A program made the position numbers and the translations under genes. This document shows, in pieces, positions 3,432-52,261 of a DNA stretch of 64,000 bases. The DNA comes from Candidatus Levyibacteriota bacterium (GTDB lineage: Bacteria; Patescibacteriota; Microgenomatia; Levybacterales; UBA12049). Positions within the stretch are counted from its first letter, which is position 1. Each line of letters opens with the position of its first letter. The stretch lies in assembly GCA_043823085.1 (NCBI GenBank), contig JBDRBE010000004.1:269992-333991 (forward strand). The letters are read 5' to 3'. The notes beneath the pieces are model-generated. The model ran no database searches. It worked only from the letters and a program-made list of their open reading frames with translations, and had not been told where the DNA came from.

Positions 3432-3565
3432 ATGAAAAAATCTTTATTAACCCTTACCATTACTATGCTCCTTTAAGAGGAGTTGAAATGGTTTGGGAGA
3501 GTAAAGAAGTTTCAAAATAACCAAATCAGTAATGTTTAATCTCCCAAACTTGGGAGATTTTTTTA
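3432..3565 (+). promoter_or_regulatory. putative leader region: 14-codon ORF (MKKSLLTLTITMLL), 10-codon ORF (MVWESKEVSK), intrinsic terminator, and a mutually exclusive antiterminator pairing
   Basis: Terminator ctccc-aaactt-gggag followed by 7 T (3541..3564). gtttgggag (3491..3499) is the exact complement of ctcccaaac (3541..3549). Confidence 0.4.
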
Positions 3566-3876: not shown

Positions 3877-4653
3877 ATGCCAGAAACAGGAATCGGAGTC
3901 TTAGAAAAGCCTAAACTACCTCACCCGACCCATGAAATTGCCGCTTATTATACAGGGAAATATAACAGCGCGGAAAAATCAGATAGTCCAGAACTCGCGA
4001 GAATCAATCTTATAAAAATGGCTTTTCCTTATCTTTTGTCATTTAGACAAAGCGACAGAGTATTAGATATAGGAGCAGGAAAACAAATTTTAGAAAGGCA
4101 GCTTAGAAATTACTTTAAAAATAAGGCTGGAAGGCCACTTCAAATACCAATAGTAACTCTTGACGTAGCAAATATTAAGTATAGAAAGTTACTGGAAAAA
4201 AAACAAAAAAATATCCACCATGTATTAGCAAGGAGTGAAAAACTCCCAATTCCAGATGAAAGTATAGCCTTAGTAATTTCAAGCATGGCCTTGGATTTAA
4301 TGCCTGACGAAGCAATTGCTGAAGTTTTTCGAGTTTTGAAACCCTGCTCTCACGCTCTGATAACTCTCCATCATCCGGCGCTGATTCCAAATGATCTTGA
4401 AGAATTATTGAAGAAACAGAATGTTAGAGCAAGCGAAAGAAGAGTTTATGAAATTTGGGACTACCTTATCAAGAATCAGAAACTTTCAAGCGATATGAAT
4501 ACAATAGCAAACAGATTAAATAAATATGGCTTCAATATAGCAACTATTAATGAAGCACGCGACGAAAAAGATACATGGTGGGAGATAGATTTAATCAAAC
4601 CAGAAAAAGCTGATGAAAATAATCTGTGGGCTCAAGAGGAGTCGAACCTCTGA
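3877..4653 (+). CDS. class I SAM-dependent methyltransferase; the 3' end reads into a tRNA-Val fragment
   Basis: Motif I VLDIGAGKQ, motif post-I/II region DESIALVISSMALDL, motif III FRVLKP. The last ~9 codons are encoded by tRNA-like sequence (tgggctcaagaggagtcgaacc). Confidence 0.6.
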   Translation: MPETGIGVLEKPKLPHPTHEIAAYYTGKYNSAEKSDSPELARINLIKMAFPYLLSFRQSDRVLDIGAGKQILERQLRNYFKNKAGRPLQIPIVTLDVANIKYRKLLEKKQKNIHHVLARSEKLPIPDESIALVISSMALDLMPDEAIAEVFRVLKPCSHALITLHHPALIPNDLEELLKKQNVRASERRVYEIWDYLIKNQKLSSDMNTIANRLNKYGFNIATINEARDEKDTWWEIDLIKPEKADENNLWAQEESNL

Positions 4654-4677
4654 CCTTTACAATGTCAATGCAACGCC
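4627..4677 (-). pseudogene. tRNA-Val 3' fragment (anticodon arm through 3' end) duplicated next to the complete tRNA-Val
   Basis: Minus-strand sequence gcgttgcattgacattgtaaaggtcagaggttcgactcctcttgagccca parallels the 3' two-thirds of the adjacent tRNA-Val with several substitutions. Confidence 0.6.
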
Positions 4678-4692
4678 CCGCCTGCCTTGCTG

Positions 4693-4766
4693 TGGAGTTG
4701 ACAGGATTCGAACCTGTGACCTTTGCAATGTCAATGCAACGCTCTAACCAACTGAGCTACAACTCC
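4693..4766 (-). tRNA. tRNA-Val(GAC)
   Basis: Minus strand ggagttgtagctcagttggttagagcgttgcattGACattgcaaaggtcacaggttcgaatcctgtcaactcca. Full cloverleaf. Confidence 0.8.
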
Positions 4767-4780
4767 AAATACGGCGGGCA

Positions 4781-4806
4781 GGTCTAACCAACTGAGCTAT
4801 GAGCCC
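4781..4806 (-). pseudogene. tRNA 5' fragment (acceptor plus D arm: gggctcatagctcagttggttagacc) whose acceptor strand matches the 3' fragment at 4627..4677
   Basis: gggctca pairs with tgagccc of the 3' fragment. The complete tRNA-Val lies between the two fragments. Confidence 0.5.
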
Positions 4807-4869
4807 TAAAATAACATTTAAATTTTAACAGATAAGAGTAAATCGAGCAAGATTAAGAATTTAAACTTT

Positions 4870-4921
4870 ATGAAAAAGATAATTTTAGCCTCTGCCTCTC
4901 CCCGAAGAAAAGAATTGTTAA
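4870..4921 (+). repeat. 52-bp direct repeat, copy 1 (duplicate of the maf 5' end; copy 2 at 5881..5932; 3 mismatches)
   Basis: atgaaaaagataattttagcctctgcctctccccgaagaaaagaattgttaaa versus atgaaaaagataattttagcctctgcctctcctcgaagagaagaattgttaaa. Confidence 0.85.
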
Positions 4922-5748
4922 ACTCTCTGTGGTGTTGGTGGAGGAAATACACTTTCTCCGCGGGGTGAGTTTGCAACCTTTATAACCGCATTTTTATCCA
5001 GCCGAAGTGTAAGAGCATAAGAAACCTTAGGAATGCCATCCTGAGGTCTTGGCTTATATTCAACTATCGTGGCAGATACTCCTGAAAGATTAGTTGCAAG
5101 ATCACCTACCCAACCATTCTGTTCGCTACTTTCACTAACATGATGCCATTTTTGATTCCTTCTGGCAAGGTTGATTAACAAAGGTAATGTAGCTCTATCC
5201 GTAAGCAAACCAATTCTTTTAAGCACTGGTTCTAATACCGAAGGATCTGTATGATCAAGTAAATAAAGATAATCACGAGATTGAAATGAGCCTGGGGTCT
5301 TTAGTTCATCTTGAAAAACGTCTTCTACGCCTGCAGGTTTTCCTTCCAATTCTCTTTCCACCTGAATTTTTTCAACCATCTCATGTATGTCATCTGCCAT
5401 CTTACGCAAGTTTTGACTTTTTCCACATAACATCCTTCTACGCTCATCACCTTCAGGAAATCCTTCAGCAACTTCATATAAAATATTATCTAACACTTCT
5501 ACTGGACTTTCTGCCAATTTTTCTTCTACTTCTCGTCTTGCCCTTTCTCCTGCCATCCTAGCAACATCAGCAATTACCCTACGTTGTTCTCGAGGAATAT
5601 CTAGTCCTATTGTTGGGACTATAATCTGTGCTTTTGTTCGCAACTCTGCTCTACGGGCTGAATCGCCCTTGGTATGTCGATTTATACGAGATTCCACTTG
5701 TTGGAGAGATGGTCTTGATCCTACTTCAGATCTTGGCTCACCATTCAT
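4918..5748 (-). CDS. hypothetical protein (276 aa) on a GC-enriched insertion; distant paralog of 21776..22441
   Basis: Long ORF with visibly higher GC than flanks. Shares N-terminal M-N-E-P..GSR and C-terminal YAL...RGE..PPP segments with the 221-aa protein at 21776..22441. Confidence 0.6.
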   Translation of the reverse strand: MNGEPRSEVGSRPSLQQVESRINRHTKGDSARRAELRTKAQIIVPTIGLDIPREQRRVIADVARMAGERARREVEEKLAESPVEVLDNILYEVAEGFPEGDERRRMLCGKSQNLRKMADDIHEMVEKIQVERELEGKPAGVEDVFQDELKTPGSFQSRDYLYLLDHTDPSVLEPVLKRIGLLTDRATLPLLINLARRNQKWHHVSESSEQNGWVGDLATNLSGVSATIVEYKPRPQDGIPKVSYALTLRLDKNAVIKVANSPRGESVFPPPTPQRV

Positions 5749-5880
5749 ATAGTGTCTTTGATGCTAGCATAGTTTTTTTACAAATGCAAGTGGTTTTTTC
5801 TTAAATACCTGTTAAAATACAGAGAGTAAAAATTTGTTTCCCGTACACGGGAGGGGTAAGGAAAGCTTATCCCGCATTTT

Positions 5881-6462
5881 ATGAAAAAGATAATTTTAGC
5901 CTCTGCCTCTCCTCGAAGAGAAGAATTGTTAAAAAATATCGGATTGAAATTCAGCGTTGAGCCAAGCAACTTAGATGAGAACATGACGCTAAATCTAAAA
6001 CCAGCTAAACTTGCTGAATTTTTATCATTCCAAAAAGCTAAAACCGTGGCCAAAAAATATAAAAATTCGATTATTATTGCCGCCGACACAATCGTTGTAA
6101 TCGGAAATGATATTTTAGGAAAAGCGCATACTGACAAAGAGGCAAAACAGATGTTAAATAAACTGAATGGAAAATCTCACTTGGTAATTACCGGATTTAC
6201 AATTATCGATAGCAATACAAATAAAAAAGTAACCAAATCCGAAAAAACAAAAGTATTCTTTAAAAAACTCAATGCACATGAAATAGATAATTATATAGCA
6301 ACAGGCGAACCGGTAAAAAAAGGAGGGGCGGGATCGTATTGCATTCAGGGTTTTGCCTCGATGTTTATAAAAAAAATTAAAGGAGACTATTTTAATGTTG
6401 TCGGCCTGCCGATATATTCGCTTATGGAATCTCTAAAAAAATTTGGCATCAAAGTTTTGTAA
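5881..6462 (+). CDS. maf: Maf-like nucleotide pyrophosphatase (septum formation protein Maf)
   Basis: N-terminal IILASASPRR with downstream conserved Maf/Ham1 motifs; 193 aa. Confidence 0.8.
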   Translation: MKKIILASASPRREELLKNIGLKFSVEPSNLDENMTLNLKPAKLAEFLSFQKAKTVAKKYKNSIIIAADTIVVIGNDILGKAHTDKEAKQMLNKLNGKSHLVITGFTIIDSNTNKKVTKSEKTKVFFKKLNAHEIDNYIATGEPVKKGGAGSYCIQGFASMFIKKIKGDYFNVVGLPIYSLMESLKKFGIKVL

Positions 6463-6469
6463 AATCAGC

Positions 6470-6498
6470 TTGACATGATGGTTGCAAAGTGATAAAGT
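6470..6498 (+). promoter_or_regulatory. promoter TTGACA-17-TAAAGT upstream of the thrS leader
   Basis: cttgacatgatggttgcaaagtgataaagt. Confidence 0.4.
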
Positions 6499-6511
6499 TA
6501 AAATTATCAAT

Positions 6512-6559
6512 ATGAAAAAATTTGATTTAAAAAAAACTACTACTACCTTTTCCTTCTAG
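6512..6559 (+). promoter_or_regulatory. 15-codon leader ORF MKKFDLKKTTTTFSF with four consecutive Thr codons
   Basis: atg aaa aaa ttt gat tta aaa aaa act act act acc ttt tcc ttc tag, read directly. Confidence 0.5.
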
Positions 6560-6585
6560 TGGGGGGTGGTAAGTTTGTGAAATAA

Positions 6586-6610
6586 AACCTCCCAATAGGA
6601 GGTTTTTTTG
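6586..6610 (+). terminator. intrinsic terminator cctcc(c)-aata-ggagg followed by T7, within the thrS leader
   Basis: aacctcccaataggaggttttttt. The upstream G-run tggggggtgg can pair with cctccc instead, forming an antiterminator. Confidence 0.55.
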
Positions 6611-6732
6611 TGTACATTTGAAAATTTATGAATAGCACACAATCCGTCTAAAAGCGCTCTTCGAGACAAGTCTGACTTGCTCGAGAAGTAAGCTTAGATG
6701 GATGTGTTAAATTCTGATATAATATAAAAATT

Positions 6733-39211: not shown

Positions 39212-40468
39212 ATGAAATACGATATCAAAGATATTAGTTTAGACAAGGAAGGTAAATTAAAAATTGAGTGGGCGAGTCAACAAATGCCGGTTTTAAGGCT
39301 TATTGAAAAAGAATTTCAAAAAGAAAAACCATTGGAAGGAATAACTATTGGCGCCTGTCTTCATGTCACAAGTGAAACCGCAAATTTAATGCTGACTTTA
39401 AAAGCAGGAGGTGCAAACGTAATTCTTTGCGCTTCCAATCCTTTATCGACTCAAGATTCTATTGCCGCATCGCTGGTTCATGATTACGAAATTCCAACTT
39501 TTGCCGTAAAAGGGGAAGACAACAAAACTTTTTATAAACATTTAAATATGGTTTTGGATTTTCATCCTCAAATCACTATGGATGATGGCGCAGATTTAGT
39601 TTCGCTTTTGCATAAAGAAAGGAAAAATCAAATTAAAGAAATCACCGGCTCAAGCGAAGAAACAACAACCGGAATTATAAGACTTAAAGCAATGGAAAAA
39701 GAAAAAGTGTTGAAGTTTCCGGTTATTGCGGTCAACGATAGCGATACGAAACACATGTTTGATAACAGATACGGCACAGGACAATCATCAATTGACGGAA
39801 TTTTGCGGGCGACAAATATTCTACTGGCCGGTAAAAATTTTGTAGTCTGCGGATATGGCTGGTGTTCAAGAGGAGTTGCAACAAGAGCAAAAGGCATGGG
39901 AGCAAACATTATAATTACAGAAGTTGATCCAATTAAAGCATTGGAGGCGGTTATGGACGGATTTAGAGTTATGAAAATTCAAAAAGCGGCAAAGATTGCG
40001 GATATAATGATAACTGCAACCGGCGACAAGAGTGTCATTGATAAAAAAGTTATTGATAATTTAAAAGACGGCGCAATAATTGCAAACACCGGCCATTTTA
40101 ATGTTGAAATTGATATTGAATATTTAGAATCTGCAAAGAAAACTAAAAGAAAAATGCGAGATAATCTGGAAGAATATGTTTTAAAAAATGGCAAAACAGT
40201 TTATCTTTTGGCAGAAGGAAGACTCGTAAATTTAGCATCTGCCGAAGGACATCCGGCAGAAGTTATGGATATGAGTTTTGCCAATCAAGCTTTGGCCGCT
40301 AAATTTATAGTTAAAAATAAAGGCAAATTAAAAAATAAAGTTTATGTTTTACCCAAAAATATTGACAGAACTATTGCGTTTCTAAAACTCAAAGGGATGG
40401 GAGTTAGCATTGACCACCTGACTAAAGTTCAAAGAAAATATCTTACAAGCTGGCAGGAAGGAACATAA
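39212..40468 (+). CDS. ahcY: adenosylhomocysteinase
   Basis: [10 protein letters not shown]; NAD-binding [10 protein letters not shown]; TEVDPI; about 418 aa. Confidence 0.9.
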
Positions 40469-40488
40469 CCTCACATCGATTACATATT

Positions 40489-41304
40489 ACCAAAGGTGGC
40501 ATACCTAATCCACCTCTAAGGTGGATTTCTATTGACACCTCTGGTTTTCGACACTAGAATAAATTATGCCCGGAAGAAATACTATTCTTGCGAACGGGGA
40601 AACATATCATATTTTTAATAGAGGAGTTGCCTCTCAACCAACATTTATAGACAAAAAAGATTATCAGAGAGTTATGGATAGTTTCTTCTATTACCAAAAC
40701 ATTACTCCTCCAATAAAGTATTCAAAATTTTTAATGATTTCCGCTAAAGAGAGAGACAATATTATAAATAATTTAAGAAAAAAGAAATTTTTCCATGCTG
40801 ATATCATTGCTTATTGTTTTATGCCTACTCATTTCCATTTATTGTTAAGACAAAATGAAGAAAATGGAATCTCAAAATTTGTAGGAAACTTCACCAACAG
40901 TTATACAAGATACTTTAATACAAAACGGGAAAGAAAAGGACCAATCTTTGAAGGCAAATTCGGTTCTGTAAGAATTGAAACAAGCGAACAACTACTTCAT
41001 GTTTCGAGATACATTCACCTTAATCCTTACTCGTCTTATCTTGTTAAAACAACTCAGGAGCTCGAGTCTTTTACCTATTCATCATTTAATGAATATATCG
41101 CAGGTAATAGTAATCTTTGTAATAAAGACTTCATTCTGGAAAATTTTAAGACCGCTAAGGAATATAAAAAATTCGTTTTTGATCAAGCAGACTACCAAAA
41201 AAAACTAAACAACATTAAACACCTTCTCTTGGAGAATTAGCGGAAATACCAAAGGTGGCATACCTAATCCACCTCTAAGGTGGATTTCTATTGACACCTC
41301 TGGT
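40489..41304 (+). mobile_element. IS200/IS605-like element: HUH (Y1) transposase gene flanked by identical 57-bp hairpin-containing ends in direct orientation
   Basis: accaaaggtggcatacctaatccacctctaaggtggatttctattgacacctctggt occurs at 40489..40545 and 41248..41304. Each copy holds the ccacc-tctaa-ggtgg hairpin. Confidence 0.7.
40566..41240 (+). CDS. IS200-like / REP-associated tyrosine (HUH Y1) transposase
   Basis: HUH motif PTHFHLLL; catalytic Tyr region LHVSRYIHLNP. Confidence 0.7.
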   Translation: MPGRNTILANGETYHIFNRGVASQPTFIDKKDYQRVMDSFFYYQNITPPIKYSKFLMISAKERDNIINNLRKKKFFHADIIAYCFMPTHFHLLLRQNEENGISKFVGNFTNSYTRYFNTKRERKGPIFEGKFGSVRIETSEQLLHVSRYIHLNPYSSYLVKTTQELESFTYSSFNEYIAGNSNLCNKDFILENFKTAKEYKKFVFDQADYQKKLNNIKHLLLEN

Positions 41305-41356: not shown

Positions 41357-43312
<1,956 letters not shown>

Positions 43313-47818: not shown

Positions 47819-50287
47819 ATGACTAATATCGGTAAAATTCAGCCCGTTGAAATCACAACGGAAATGAAGAAAAGTTATCTTGATTACGCCATGAGCGTAA
47901 TTGTTGCCCGTGCTTTACCTGATGTTAAAGACGGTCTAAAACCGGTCCACAGACGCATCCTCTACGCCATGCACGAAATGAATCTAACCCACAGCGCTAA
48001 ATACGCAAAAAGTGCAAAAATTGTCGGAGAAGTCATGGGGAAATATCATCCTCACGGAGATATGCCAATTTATGACGCTCTTGTCCGGCTTGCACAGAAT
48101 TTTTCCATGCGTTATCCGCTTATTGACGGTCAGGGTAACTTTGGTTCCATGGACGGCGATCCGCCGGCAGCAATGAGATACACAGAGGCCAGACTTGCCG
48201 CAATAACTTCCGAGATGCTTTACGATTTAGACAAAGAGACTGTCTTGTATACGCAAAATTTTGACGCGACTCTTAAAGAACCTCTATATCTGCCTGCAAA
48301 ACTGCCGAATTTACTTTTGATGGGATCTGAAGGCATTGCTGTTGGCATGGCAACCAAAATTCCTCCGCATAATCTTGGAGAAGTTATTGACGCGATTAAT
48401 TTTATGATCGAAAAAACAACTATTTCCAAAGATGAAAAACATACCTTTAACACATCGGGCATGACCATTGACGAACTTTTAGAATTTATTAAAGGCCCGG
48501 ATTTTCCAACATATGGCGTAATTTACGATATATCAGAAATAAAAAATGTATATTTAACAGGACGGGGACGAATAATTATTCGCGGAAAAGCGGATATTGA
48601 AGATATTGGCAATGGAAAATCCGCGATTATAATTACCGAACTTCCGTATCAAGTTAACAAAGCACTGCTTGTGGCGCGCATTGCCGATTTGGCAAAAGAG
48701 AAAAAGGTTGAAGGAATTTCAGATCTCCGCGACGAATCGGACAGACATGGAATAAGAGTTGTTGTCGAATTAAAAAGAGACACTACGCCAAAAAAAGTTT
48801 TGAATAATTTGTTTAAACACACCGCTCTTCAAACAATTTTTCCGGCAAACATTGTTGCTTTGGTAGACGGAACACCCCAAACATTAAACCTTAAAACAAT
48901 TTTGGAAGAATATTTAAAACATCGTTTTTCTGTGATTTTCAAACGGTCTGAATTTGAACTCGTCCAGTCAAAAGCAAGACTGCATATTTTAAAAGGGTTA
49001 AAAATTGCGGTTGATAATATTGACGCCGTTATAAAAACCATCCGCGCCTCAAAAACACAAGAAGAGGCAAAGCAAAATTTAATGGAAAAATTCAAGTTAT
49101 CGGATCTTCAGGCAACTGCAATTTTGGACATGCAACTCCGCCGTCTTGCAGCCCTTGAAAGACAAAAAATTGAAGACGAGTACGAAATGGTTAAAGAAAC
49201 AATTGAATATCTTGAGGATTTGCTTGCCAATCCGCCAAAAATTTTAAAAGTAATAAAAGGCGAGCTTTCAAATCTCAGAGAGAAATATCATGATGAGCGA
49301 AGAACCAGAGTTTTTAAAAGTAAAGTCGGCGAGTTTTCCGAAGAAGACCTCATTCCAAATGAACCAACAGTTATAACACTGACAACAACCGGCTATATTA
49401 AAAGACAATCGTTGAATAGTTTTAGAACCCAGCATCGTGGCGGCAAAGGCGTAAGAGGAATGACTACAAAAGATGAAGATGGAATTATGCATATTCAATA
49501 TGCCCAAACCCATGATAATATTCTTTTCTTTACCAACAAAGGAAAAGTTTATCAGCTTCGCGCTTTTGAAATTGCCGAAAGCTCCAGAACCAGTAAAGGC
49601 AGTGCCATTATAAATTTATTGAGCATAGAAGTTGGTGAAAAAGTCGAATCTTTTGTAGTTTATGGAAAAAACCAAGGAAAAAAATATGTCTTTTTAACGA
49701 CAAGAAAGGGTACGGTCAAAAAATCAGCTCTTTCGGAATTTGAAAATATCAGAAGAAGCGGAATTGCGTCCATTAAACTTGATAAAAACGACGAACTTGT
49801 TTGGTCCGATTTAACAAGCGGAGACAGTGATGTTTTAATCGTTACAAAAAACGGCAAGGCCATAAGATTTTCGGAAAAAACGGCAAGGCCATTGGGACGA
49901 AACACCATGGGCGTTCGAGGAATAAAAATTACAGGAGACGACGAAGTAATCGGAATGGATGTTATCGAAAAAGGACAAAACCCTGATCTTTTGACCATTA
50001 TGGAAAGAGGTCTTGGTAAAAAAACCCCGGTTAATCAATTTCACAAGCAAAGCAGAGGAGGACAGGGAGTAAAAGTAGCAAAAGTCACACAAAAAACCGG
50101 AAAAGTCGCTTTTGCCCAAGTAATTCCCCAAATTTGCGAAGAAATTATTGTCACATCCAAACGCGGACAAATTGTTAAACTTGAACTCTCGTCTATTCCA
50201 AAGCTTTCGCGGGCAACACAAGGCGTAATTTTAATGAGATTTTCAAATCAGGCAGACAGCGTAACCTCGGGAACTTGTCTTGGTTAA
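47819..50287 (+). CDS. gyrA: DNA gyrase subunit A
   Basis: Catalytic Tyr region ([10 protein letters not shown]), QRDR-like region, C-terminal beta-pinwheel repeats. Confidence 0.95.
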
Positions 50288-50295
50288 TAAAAAAC

Positions 50296-51336
50296 ATGAA
50301 AATTGATGGAAAAGAAATTGCTAAAAATATCCTCGAAGATCTCAAAATTAGAGTTGAAAAATTAAAAGAGAAAAATATAATCCCAGGACTTTCGATAATT
50401 TTAGTTGGAGATAACCCGGCTTCCAAAGCTTATGTTCGGCAAAAAGAATTAAAAGCAGAAAAAATAGGAGCAAATGCTGTCGTTTTGAATTTAGATTCTA
50501 AAACTTCAAATTCTGAATTACTAAAAACAATTGAGCAATGGAACAATGATAGCAATATTCATGGAATGATTGTTCAGCGACCTCTTCCTTCGCATATTGA
50601 TGAGAAAAAAATTGATCTTGCAACCGACCCCAAAAAAGATATTGACTCCTTCCATCCAAAGTCTCCTTATCCAATGCCTCTTGCCGCAGCAGTTTTGAAA
50701 ATTTTAGAGGAAATTTATTTATTTACAAATGGCGCGGGAAGACACAAAATTTTCGCAAAGCGAGGTACAACGCATCATAACAAAGATTTTTATCGCGGGG
50801 AGTCTTTTCATGAGGCGATGTCTTCACTAGAGTCGCCGAAGGTGACCGTATCCCGAGACGAGCCACTTGACGGCGAGTCGGAGGGACGCTTGTGTTTGAA
50901 GACTCGCCAAACTGAAAAGACGACCTCAGCGATAAACCCTATCAACTTTAAAGAGTGGTTAAAATCTAAAAGAATTGTCGTGATTGGTAAAGGGAAAACA
51001 GGCGGGGGCCCAACTATTCAAATGCTAAAAAAAATGGGGGTTGAACTTCAAATTATCGACAGCAAAACCCAAAATCCAAAAGATTTCACAAAATCTGCAG
51101 ACATAATTATTTCAACTGTCGGAAAACCAAATATTTTGAAGCCGGAAATGATTAAAAAGGGAATAATTTTAATAAGTGTGGGCCAGCATAAAGGAATTGA
51201 CGGAAAATTCCATGGAGATTATGAGGAAAATGAAATTAAAAATATCGCCTCTTTTTACACCCCAACTCCCGGGGGCATCGGCCCTGTCAACGTCGCCATG
51301 CTTCTTGAAAACCTCGTCACCGCCGCCCAAAATTGA
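50296..51336 (+). CDS. folD: methylenetetrahydrofolate dehydrogenase/cyclohydrolase with an in-frame insertion of about 76 aa and a recoded 3' end
   Basis: N-terminal MKIDGKEIA...YVRQKELK; C-terminal TPTPGGIGPVNVAMLLENL. GC-rich insert between ILEE and IVVIGKG. Confidence 0.8.
   Translation: MKIDGKEIAKNILEDLKIRVEKLKEKNIIPGLSIILVGDNPASKAYVRQKELKAEKIGANAVVLNLDSKTSNSELLKTIEQWNNDSNIHGMIVQRPLPSHIDEKKIDLATDPKKDIDSFHPKSPYPMPLAAAVLKILEEIYLFTNGAGRHKIFAKRGTTHHNKDFYRGESFHEAMSSLESPKVTVSRDEPLDGESEGRLCLKTRQTEKTTSAINPINFKEWLKSKRIVVIGKGKTGGGPTIQMLKKMGVELQIIDSKTQNPKDFTKSADIIISTVGKPNILKPEMIKKGIILISVGQHKGIDGKFHGDYEENEIKNIASFYTPTPGGIGPVNVAMLLENLVTAAQN
50712..50940 (+). repeat. GC-rich in-frame insertion in folD sharing motifs with the purH/carB palindromic elements
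   Basis: Contains tcatgaggcg...cctcagcg termini, atcccgagac core, and ggcgagtc/gactcgcc inverted repeats. About 50% GC against about 33% in flanks. Confidence 0.5.
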
Positions 51337-51370: not shown

Positions 51371-52033
51371 ATGAGCAAAGAAAAGAAAGCAGGAGAACTA
51401 GCAAGACGTATTGAAGAAAAGAGACAAGAATCAATACGAGAAGAGGTCACTAAATTATTAGAAAAGATAAATCAAAAAATTTGCAGAATGAAGCAGTGGC
51501 GAGTAGATATCGAGGAAGCAGGAGTAGAAAATGTCTCTGTGCCAGAAGTTATACTGGCAACTGATGAATTAACAAAAGAAGCATTTGAAGAACTTGAAGT
51601 TAAACATATTCCAATCGTTATTCTGTCAGCTCCCCAAGAAAGGCAACAAGGTCCGATAAAAGTGTTCGTTACCAATGATCATCCTATTGATCATTTTAGT
51701 GTCACAAATTTTGATTTATCTGCTCATCTTCCCTTAGTCACAAGCCCCATTTGCTTAACAACTGCATTTAAAGATTATCGATATCCAGAGAATAGATATT
51801 ATAGTTTTTTCCCAATAGAAGGACGGATGAATCCTTGTCTCCCTTATTTACCAGGAGTTGATGGAACTAACTCTGCAAGTTTTCAAGATCCACGAGATGA
51901 AGAAAGTATGACCATAATTGTAATTGATGCCCGTTTTCCAACATCAGAAAGAGATGTGACATTTTTTCCAGCTGAAGTTCCGAGAGATGCAATGGAAACA
52001 CTTAGCGGTGTGCAATTTTTTCGCGATCGATAA
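51371..52033 (+). CDS. hypothetical protein (220 aa), cargo of an insertion at the folD 3' end
   Basis: ORF lies between the two copies of the 24-bp core caacgtcgccatgcttcttgaaaa. Charged N-terminus. Confidence 0.55.
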   Translation: MSKEKKAGELARRIEEKRQESIREEVTKLLEKINQKICRMKQWRVDIEEAGVENVSVPEVILATDELTKEAFEELEVKHIPIVILSAPQERQQGPIKVFVTNDHPIDHFSVTNFDLSAHLPLVTSPICLTTAFKDYRYPENRYYSFFPIEGRMNPCLPYLPGVDGTNSASFQDPRDEESMTIIVIDARFPTSERDVTFFPAEVPRDAMETLSGVQFFRDR

Positions 52034-52203
52034 CAAAGTTTCGAATTCCCACATCCACTTCTTTCCACTTTAATGACATATATTATTAAAGTGATTTATA
52101 CTTATCTCAACTCTATGACTTCTAGCGTTCATTTTATAACTTCGTTGCTTTTGGATTATCACGGCAATCTTTCCGAGGACCGTCCCCATTATTTATCTCC
52201 CTT

Positions 52204-52261
52204 CAACGTCGCCATGCTTCTTGAAAATTTAGTCGTTGCAACAGAAACTAGCTCAACATAA
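52204..52261 (+). pseudogene. displaced native-like 3' end fragment of folD (encodes ...SPFNVAMLLENLVVATETSST*)
   Basis: 24-bp identity with folD 51288..51311 followed by AT-rich codons for the same C-terminal peptide. Confidence 0.6.

Follow-up and report, generated by a model that had tools for sequence, protein, structure and literature searches.

The 5′ end of maf is duplicated around a single gene

The stretch analysed here, referred to as the window, comprises 64,000 nucleotides (nt) from a Candidatus Levyibacteriota bacterium, a member of the Candidate Phyla Radiation (CPR) (GenBank assembly GCA_043823085.1, contig JBDRBE010000004.1, positions 269,992 to 333,991 of the forward strand). 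Near its left end the first codons of the gene maf occur twice in the same orientation and enclose one open reading frame (ORF), which we call cargo gene 1. The GC content of the window is 36.8%; its ORFs have a mean GC of 0.366 (standard deviation, sd, 0.031) and a mean GC at third codon positions (GC3) of 0.298. The locus is made up as follows, in window coordinates and with the evidence for each feature.

4867..4922, plus strand: repeat copy 1, the stranded maf 5′ stub (3 nt of upstream sequence and the first 53 nt of maf); repeats, pattern search, alignment with copy 2 and with the maf of a relative
4870..4968, plus strand: stub reading frame MKKIILASASPRRKELLNSLWCWWRKYTFSAG followed by a stop, 32 codons, running towards the 3′ end of the cargo gene; sequence, tblastn of the Maf N-terminus, alignment
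4918..5748, minus strand: cargo gene 1, 276 amino acids (aa), ABH816_03565, hypothetical protein; ORF list
5749..5877, no strand: spacer of 129 nt between the divergent cargo gene and maf, with two small hairpins (5839-5850 and 5853-5873); sequence
5878..5933, plus strand: repeat copy 2, the working maf 5′ end; repeats, pattern search, alignment
5881..6462, plus strand: intact maf, 193 aa; Pfam PF02545 over its full length, 6.4e-59

The original prediction, made from the letters of the window, described a 52-bp repeat with three mismatches. The repeat is real (self-BLAST of the window, E = 2.9e-20), but the repeat finder gives it 56 nt and two mismatches (4867-4922 and 5878-5933; 54/56 identical, 96%). 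It starts 3 nt 5′ of the maf ATG and ends within codon 18, covering the first 53 nt of the gene, and its longest exact core is 35 nt. The copies are told apart by single-nucleotide polymorphisms (SNPs) at 33 and 39 nt of the maf coding sequence (window positions 4902/5913 and 4908/5919), copy 1 reading CCC...AAA and copy 2 CCT...GAG; in the alignment residue 14 is Lys in copy 1 and Glu both in copy 2 and in the Maf of the closest relative (82% aa identity). A search for the core elsewhere, as had been suggested, returned the two copies alone: a degenerate core pattern matches twice in the window against an expectation of 0 (100 shuffles), and the core is absent from viral contigs. Copy 1 runs on for 14 codons past the repeat before it meets a stop, which leaves a 32-codon stub beside the tRNA-Val gene. 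The stop codon of the cargo gene and the final 2 nt of its last sense codon fall within copy 1. At this left junction TTAAA is the only microhomology visible on the recipient side, the maf side being homologous, and a GTTRRRY-like heptamer, GTTAAAC, is present.

The segment of about 1 kb inside the start of maf carries a single gene and leaves maf whole. The predicted host–core–cargo–core–host layout, with one 276-aa minus-strand ORF between the copies, holds, and with an intact maf on one side and a 32-codon stub on the other it is compatible with an insertion that supplies its target gene with a new end. The absence of an integrase was also correctly predicted: for the insert's single ORF, Pfam, PHROGs, PADLOC and NCBIfam return no recombinase or integrase match. 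There is no transposase in the insert by Pfam, and at positions 4923 and 5877 the repeat finder detects no terminal inverted repeats. No attC-like hairpin is formed by the repeat with its flanks: the folding energy on either strand is −1.7 to −3.6 kcal/mol, weaker than in shuffled controls. The recombinase nearest to the insert, 57 kb away, is an Xer-type tyrosine recombinase (63243-63983) that scores best as XerD/XerC (230 bits, against 114 bits as an integron integrase; NCBIfam). The spacer arrived with the insert and must now contain the maf promoter; scanned for promoters and terminators it yields weak consensus matches only, and its DNA fold has a z-score of about −1.

As a read-derived comparator we used a Logan contig from SRR27458547 (k = 31), which spans exactly 4872-5907 and ends where 31-mers become common to both copies. 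Because it covers the cargo gene and the edges of the core, the cargo–core joins on both sides are confirmed in reads; since the contig ends at each copy of the repeat, that graph does not settle which path runs through the 35-nt exact core.

The cargo gene belongs to a small, patchy family

The GC content of cargo gene 1 had been described as clearly above that of its surroundings. As an argument for foreign origin this did not survive analysis: at 0.409 it is about 1.4 sd above the ORF mean of the window and its GC3, 0.227, is below the mean, so that the excess resides at codon positions 1 and 2 and reflects amino-acid composition (rich in Arg, Glu, Gly, Ala and Pro) rather than foreign base composition. 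The proposed distant paralog at 21776-22441 likewise proved unrelated (BLASTP E 3.4; hhalign profile probability 0.2%). The original case for an insertion therefore keeps its layout and loses its compositional and paralog support. The gene at 21776-22441 (minus strand) encodes a 221-aa orphan without a family match, has the highest GC of the window (0.441) with an ordinary GC3 of 0.297, and adjoins a DUF3800 gene (22673-23455).

In a word-indexed search of 5.8 billion proteins the cargo 1 protein matches itself alone, and an exhaustive HMMER search of 1.84 billion representatives yields a family of eight, itself and seven relatives at 28–41% identity. Within the family alignment it is full length; its C-terminus (...ESVFPPPTPQRV before the stop) aligns with that of the closest relative (...ESFFPRPKPPGRVY) but stops a residue short, and the aligned tails end in PQRV and GRVY, respectively. 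Most positions invariant across the family hold residues of a structural kind (L, A, P, G, W). No significant domain or fold match was obtained with Pfam, PHROGs, PADLOC, NCBIfam or a PDB sequence profile. AlphaFold run with the eight-sequence alignment gave a confident model (predicted local distance difference test, pLDDT, 84; predicted template modelling score, pTM, 0.76), whereas the single-sequence model was poor (pLDDT 46). The predicted fold has long helices up to about residue 135, followed by a small α/β domain. Structure prediction, recommended at the outset, thus produced a model and no fold or family assignment.

The neighbourhoods of the other family members are unrelated to one another: a CvpA/CAP gene (L083), transketolase (L084), and toxin–antitoxin genes on one side with smpB on the other (L091, L092). 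None of these members has flanking repeats. Given such unrelated contexts without repeats, cargo 1 shows no sign of self-mobility. The Logan contigs with distant cargo homologues (L082, L083, L084, L085) all stop 24-174 nt past the stop codon of the gene, and the other end of L085 lies 59 nt ahead of the gene start; hidden repeats were sought there and none was found, and these contig ends may reflect chance or local strain variation.

A second duplicated gene end at folD

The whole window was scanned for duplicated gene ends, both as short direct repeats (repeat finder, self-BLAST) and as gene termini at the peptide level (tblastn). A second case was found: the 3′ end of folD (...PGGIGPVNVAMLLENLVTAAQN before the stop; the gene ends at 51336) is repeated, 916 nt downstream, in the form ...PHYLSPFNVAMLLENLVVATETSST followed by a stop (52184-52261).

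51287..51318, plus strand: copy A, the working folD 3′ end (...PVNVAMLLENLVTAAQN before the stop; gene 50275-51336); repeats, self-BLAST, tblastn of the FolD C-terminus, alignment
51371..52033, plus strand: cargo gene 2, a 220-aa orphan, GC3 0.208; no family match, unrelated to cargo 1
52200..52261, plus strand: copy B, the stranded folD 3′-end remnant (...FNVAMLLENLVVATETSST before the stop); repeats, tblastn, alignment

The nucleotide repeat (51287-51318 and 52203-52234; self-BLAST E 8.6e-06) comprises 32 nt at 91% identity, 25 nt of them exact. Past the exact core the tails are diverged yet homologous (VTAAQN and VVATETSST up to the stop), and upstream of it similarity is lost abruptly, PGGIGP standing against PHYLSP. 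We take PGGIGP to be a motif conserved in FolD proteins; the break inside it indicates that the remnant represents the arbitrarily cut tail of a different folD allele. The arrangement is identical in three independent samples (Logan SRR27458547; JGI Ga0180007, 99.7%; ENA ERZ27247128) and is real and stable. Across the folD locus JGI 3300014656 and ERZ27247128 match at 99.7–100% and contain the same strain. It is older than the maf case and of the same design. The two cargo genes were considered as possible relatives and this was rejected (hhalign probability 3.6%); by self-BLAST the two events have no non-coding sequence in common and their cores are unrelated. Across 1.4 Mb of other loci, isolated short repeats at such spacing are rare and are mostly hairpins or pieces of tRNA genes.

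FolD itself is 353 aa long and has about 100 extra in-frame residues (~125–228; 50647-50958) between its catalytic and NAD(P)-binding domains. Relative to the C-terminal Pfam model this segment takes the place of positions 1–33, and the four differences from JGI contig L190 cluster at its end.

maf occupies a variable slot beside tRNA-Val

An uninterrupted tRNA-Val–maf junction, the empty site for which a comparison with related genomes or metagenome bins had been proposed, was sought and not found among the relatives and metagenome contigs searched. The closest Maf proteins (82% aa identity) are encoded on five Rifle groundwater contigs (L086–L090) of at most 1.6 kb each, where two small minus-strand genes lie upstream and there is neither a tRNA gene nor a repeat. 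Among the 80 Maf loci listed from GTDB representative genomes the best is 60% identical and none has the order tRNA-Val–maf–thrS. The exact 30-nt junction pattern has 0 matches in JGI metagenome contigs, and exact-protein look-ups of Maf and of the methyltransferase added no samples.

Syntenic relatives surfaced instead through the tRNA survey described below. Six contigs (L139, L144, L174, L165, L096 and L181) have trigger factor, DUF5660, a nested tRNA-Val, thrS and infC in common with the window. The interval between the tRNA gene and thrS, which in the window (4811-6732) holds the stub, cargo gene 1 and maf, is about 70 nt and empty in L139, and contains an ORF for a 73–81-aa membrane protein in L144, L096 and L181, a 323-aa ORF in L174 and a 254-aa methyltransferase-like ORF in L165. 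As maf is absent from this position in all six, maf itself occupies a variable tRNA-adjacent slot. thrS encodes about 400 aa in several of these relatives and 576 aa in the window.

Origin of the duplicated gene ends

The explanation we prefer, although we hold it tentatively and rate it a little short of an even chance, is that both scars are homology-anchored insertions of DNA from related strains, each with one illegitimate junction. The anatomy of the locus, the integrity of maf and of the cargo gene, the lack of a recombinase in the insert and the second case are observed; where the DNA came from, in which order things happened and which enzymes acted we infer. The donor would have been a related-strain fragment in which an accessory gene stood head-to-head with that strain's own maf. 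On the right side the fragment would have paired with the resident maf and undergone ordinary homologous recombination; on the left its free end, just beyond the stop of the accessory gene, would have been joined illegitimately to codon 18 of the resident maf at the A-rich TTAAA. Such a process is named homology-facilitated illegitimate recombination. A Campbell-type single crossover of a circularized fragment across the 53-nt identity would give the same product and is topologically equivalent. Either way the old maf start and its promoter region would be stranded as the 32-codon stub beside tRNA-Val, with the accessory gene next to it in antisense, and the incoming spacer and maf start would now drive the intact gene. 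Host recombination and DNA uptake would suffice, an element-encoded enzyme being unnecessary. The folD duplication may have arisen by the same process with the anchor on the opposite side.

Several observations point this way. An insert without a recombinase or any recognizable domain favours homology-anchored insertion, and the lack of a common core, common arms or common cargo speaks against a single family of elements served by one attachment site and one integrase. At its outer edge the maf repeat stops 3 nt ahead of the ATG, as expected if two maf alleles had different upstream neighbours. Its inner edge lies exactly at the end of the cargo ORF, where a maf-derived stop leaves the protein one residue short, as would an accidental junction rather than a designed site. 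At folD the 25 exact nt, the diverged tail and the abrupt upstream break suggest two alleles and one illegitimate junction. In each repeat, then, one edge is the limit of conserved coding sequence and the other looks accidental, which favours anchoring by homology. Donor strains with different neighbours are plausible since the slot differs in every syntenic relative, and the low GC3 of both cargo genes (0.227 and 0.208, as low as or below the host average) suggests AT-rich donors, which fits CPR relatives. Type IV pili are the DNA-uptake machinery of many bacteria, and a complete type IV pilus cluster at 26-37 kb (PilB-like, PilT-like, PilC, PilM, prepilin peptidase and pilins) makes uptake plausible here.

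Other points weigh against this explanation. For the maf insertion neither a donor nor an empty site nor strain polymorphism was found, and none of about 15 billion proteins is closely related to the cargo protein. In published cases the usual outcome of homology-facilitated illegitimate recombination is a loss of recipient DNA, not a duplicate of it, and recombination over just 53 nt would be inefficient. Intact targets and junctions a few bases from gene ends also match integrase attachment sites; selection against disrupted genes can, as an argument, account for junctions so close to gene ends. Finally, the window does contain the Xer-type tyrosine recombinase (63243-63983), and an integrase elsewhere on the 431-kb contig is possible.

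The original prediction had left the choice between site-specific and homology-guided insertion open; the two are not separable, and the evidence leans towards the homology-guided form. An integrase acting in trans is the main rival. The insert would then be a 1-kb integrase-less unit, or what is left of an eroded element, whose attachment site mimics the first 53 nt of maf, and the repeats would be attL and attR. A core–cargo–core unit that re-creates the target gene end with few core mismatches is the classic signature of gene-end integrators, a like-looking event is seen at the 3′ end of the conserved folD, the site adjoins a tRNA gene in a slot that varies among relatives, and a tyrosine recombinase gene lies in the window. 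That enzyme, however, is of the XerC/XerD housekeeping type and the insert has no integrase of its own; the two events have neither core nor arm sequence in common, the rest of the cargo family is found in unrelated contexts and lacks flanking repeats, neither cargo relatives nor core copies occur on viral contigs, and the cargo stop falls inside the core at the cost of one residue. We consider site-specific integration unlikely, though it is the alternative to be taken most seriously. Duplication of the target itself, in which 56 nt of a single resident maf were copied as foreign DNA was joined into a wide staggered break, or by template switching during replication, seems improbable. The near identity of the copies (54/56) would suit it, and replication template switching is known to give insertions flanked by duplications of arbitrary length. 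Against it, to our knowledge no bacterial transposase or casposase produces duplications close to 56 nt in length, the insert has neither terminal inverted repeats nor a transposase, edges at a gene start and at the end of the cargo ORF would be rare for a random staggered break, and the folD tails past the exact core are diverged homologues, not copies.

Two further explanations dispense with foreign DNA or with the arrangement altogether. Cargo gene 1 might be a long-standing neighbour of maf, and the stub the product of a later partial duplication or of an eroded tandem maf. The host-like GC3 of the cargo gene and the failure to find an empty site in any relative agree with such an old local rearrangement, yet only 2 of 56 positions differ although copy 1 is unconstrained as maf, the family is patchy with a different context in each genome, and the slot varies among relatives; we think it quite improbable. 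An assembly artefact, in which a loop was threaded through the 35-nt exact repeat and the true state is an uninterrupted tRNA–maf junction plus a separate cargo molecule, draws on the break of the k = 31 contig at both copies, where the graph cannot choose a path. It would call for a 1,011-bp circle without a replication function; short reads of typical length (~100–150 nt as a general figure) would span the core, the SNPs separate the copies, and three independent samples gave one and the same assembly of the analogous folD arrangement. An artefact is accordingly the least credible of these explanations, and very improbable.

Comparison with known systems

Gene-end integrators include prophage e14 and phage 21 in icd and many tRNA-targeting islands. 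Like the maf insert, elements integrated at gene ends are bordered by target-derived repeats of tens of bases with few mismatches, keep the target intact and displace its fragment to the other end; unlike them, the maf insert is only 1 kb long, carries one gene and no integrase or excisionase, and the two cases have no common core. CIME-type (cis-mobilizable) elements derive from integrative and conjugative elements, lack an integrase, are flanked by att sites and are mobilized in trans. The maf insert resembles them in being flanked by repeats without its own recombinase, but no cognate integrase element or matching att was found for it, nor any sign of a larger ancestor. Homology-facilitated illegitimate recombination in natural transformation has been described in Acinetobacter and Streptococcus pneumoniae, with a homology anchor on one side, a microhomology join on the other, no element enzyme and accidental-looking junctions, as here. 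It differs in that published cases mostly delete recipient DNA, whereas a short recipient piece is kept as a duplicate at maf; competence of this bacterium is our presumption. With integron cassettes the insert shares a size of about 1 kb, a single gene, no recombinase, a boundary right after the stop and the GTTRRRY-like heptamer (GTTAAAC); it lacks an attC hairpin, IntI, attI and an array, and its repeat is coding sequence of the target.

Three origins were tried and rejected. An integron cassette is contradicted by the lack of an attC fold and of an array and by the Xer-like nature of the only tyrosine recombinase in the window; a transposon or insertion sequence by the lack of a transposase and of terminal inverted repeats and by a duplication of 56 nt instead of 2–15 bp; and a phage by the lack of relatives of either cargo on viral contigs.

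The maf insertion is real but, taken alone, is an ordinary recombination scar that adds one orphan gene, a minor event by which an accessory gene of a rare family entered a reduced CPR genome without harm to its target. CPR genomes have few classical mobile elements. Two scars in 64 kb suggest that short identity at conserved gene ends is a routine entry for orphan genes; if that is true, gene-end stubs could serve as markers for dating and counting the genes that CPR metagenome bins have gained. The value of the maf insertion otherwise lies in its being one of two scars and in its position beside a variable slot at a very unusual tRNA locus.

tRNA genes nested within tRNA genes

The tRNA-Val gene next to the stub lies inside another.

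4626..4810, minus strand: tRNA-Val(GAC) at 4692-4766 nested in a second tRNA-Val(GAC); ARAGORN, Rfam, repeats, RNA fold

ARAGORN and Rfam detect the inner tRNA-Val(GAC) only. The outer gene is split at D-arm position 23/24 into a 5′ part of 24 nt (4810 to 4783) and a 3′ part of 50 nt (4676 to 4626), and its halves are joined around the inner gene by complementary GC-rich spacers of 10 bp, CCTGCCCGCC and GGCAGGCGGG. The transcript folds into two stacked cloverleaves, and exact removal of the insert yields a perfect outer tRNA-Val.

Similar nests were sought in JGI metagenome contigs by scanning for a D-arm followed by a second D-arm within 15–40 nt. This recovered 96 stretches (L093–L188) from groundwater and sediment metagenomes, at least 31 of which are full nests whose outer 3′ part has 7/7 acceptor pairing and a T-loop (for example L144:700-890, L139:3340-3500, L147, L095, L117 and L169). 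Nests were judged by in-register comparison, a brute-force splice test with ARAGORN being too permissive. Insertion points lie in the D-arm or the anticodon loop, and the boundary stems are conserved and co-vary (CCYGCCYGCC with GGCRGGCRGG; CACCC(C)G...CGGG(G)CAAG). Inner and outer anticodons are identical in most nests. In one lineage tRNA-Val(GAC) is nested three to four deep (L175:8760-9200, L188:1750-2200); nearly identical 5′ halves pile up on one side and 3′ halves on the other, as though an inserted cassette had been invaded again at one and the same position. No nests were found on viral contigs. In L174 the variable or T-arm region of the outer tRNA-Val (3′ part, ~3450-3560) holds about 45 additional inserted nt (GAGCGGACGAGCGGAGCGACGGAGCTCGCTTGCTTGACAAGCGCAGC).

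The outer gene is exactly restorable in the window and in L139, L144 and L147, but not in L181, in L175 or in the class with CACCC stems, and among the syntenic relatives the same tRNA-Val variants are outer in one genome and inner in another. Because some outer genes can be restored and others not, and because variants exchange the outer and inner positions, DNA-level invasion is favoured, and we lean towards invasion by tRNA-carrying cassettes with subsequent decay of the outer gene over obligatory RNA splicing. A 2026 survey of tRNA introns in Patescibacteria found group I introns only (PMC13011429). The literature searched, including searches aimed at nested or embedded tRNA genes, yielded no description of such nests. 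Being widespread and structured, the nests are more surprising than the maf insertion and possibly the more valuable lead.

The maf scar, the folD scar and the tRNA nests might conceivably be expressions of one habit of CPR genomes, namely insertions into essential genes that bring along a spare copy of the part they interrupt, be it a whole tRNA, a 5′ end or a 3′ end, and are placed by trans-acting machinery homing on conserved gene sequence. We regard this as speculative and doubtful. If it were true, the 1-kb units would represent a new class of minimal, enzyme-less gene cassettes, and the nested tRNAs would be self-replacing tRNA cassettes able to re-invade their own copy.

A transposase gene elsewhere in the window

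Elsewhere in the window, at 40566-41240, lies a gene for a 224-aa IS200-like Y1 (HUH) transposase (Pfam Y1_Tnp, 3.9e-09), within an element at 40488-41304. Direct repeats of 58 nt without a mismatch (40488-40545 and 41247-41304) border the gene and contain a CCACC-TCTAA-GGTGG hairpin. The element stands between a 418-aa gene upstream (39212-40468) and a 650-aa gene downstream (41360-43312), the latter gyrB-like by eye.

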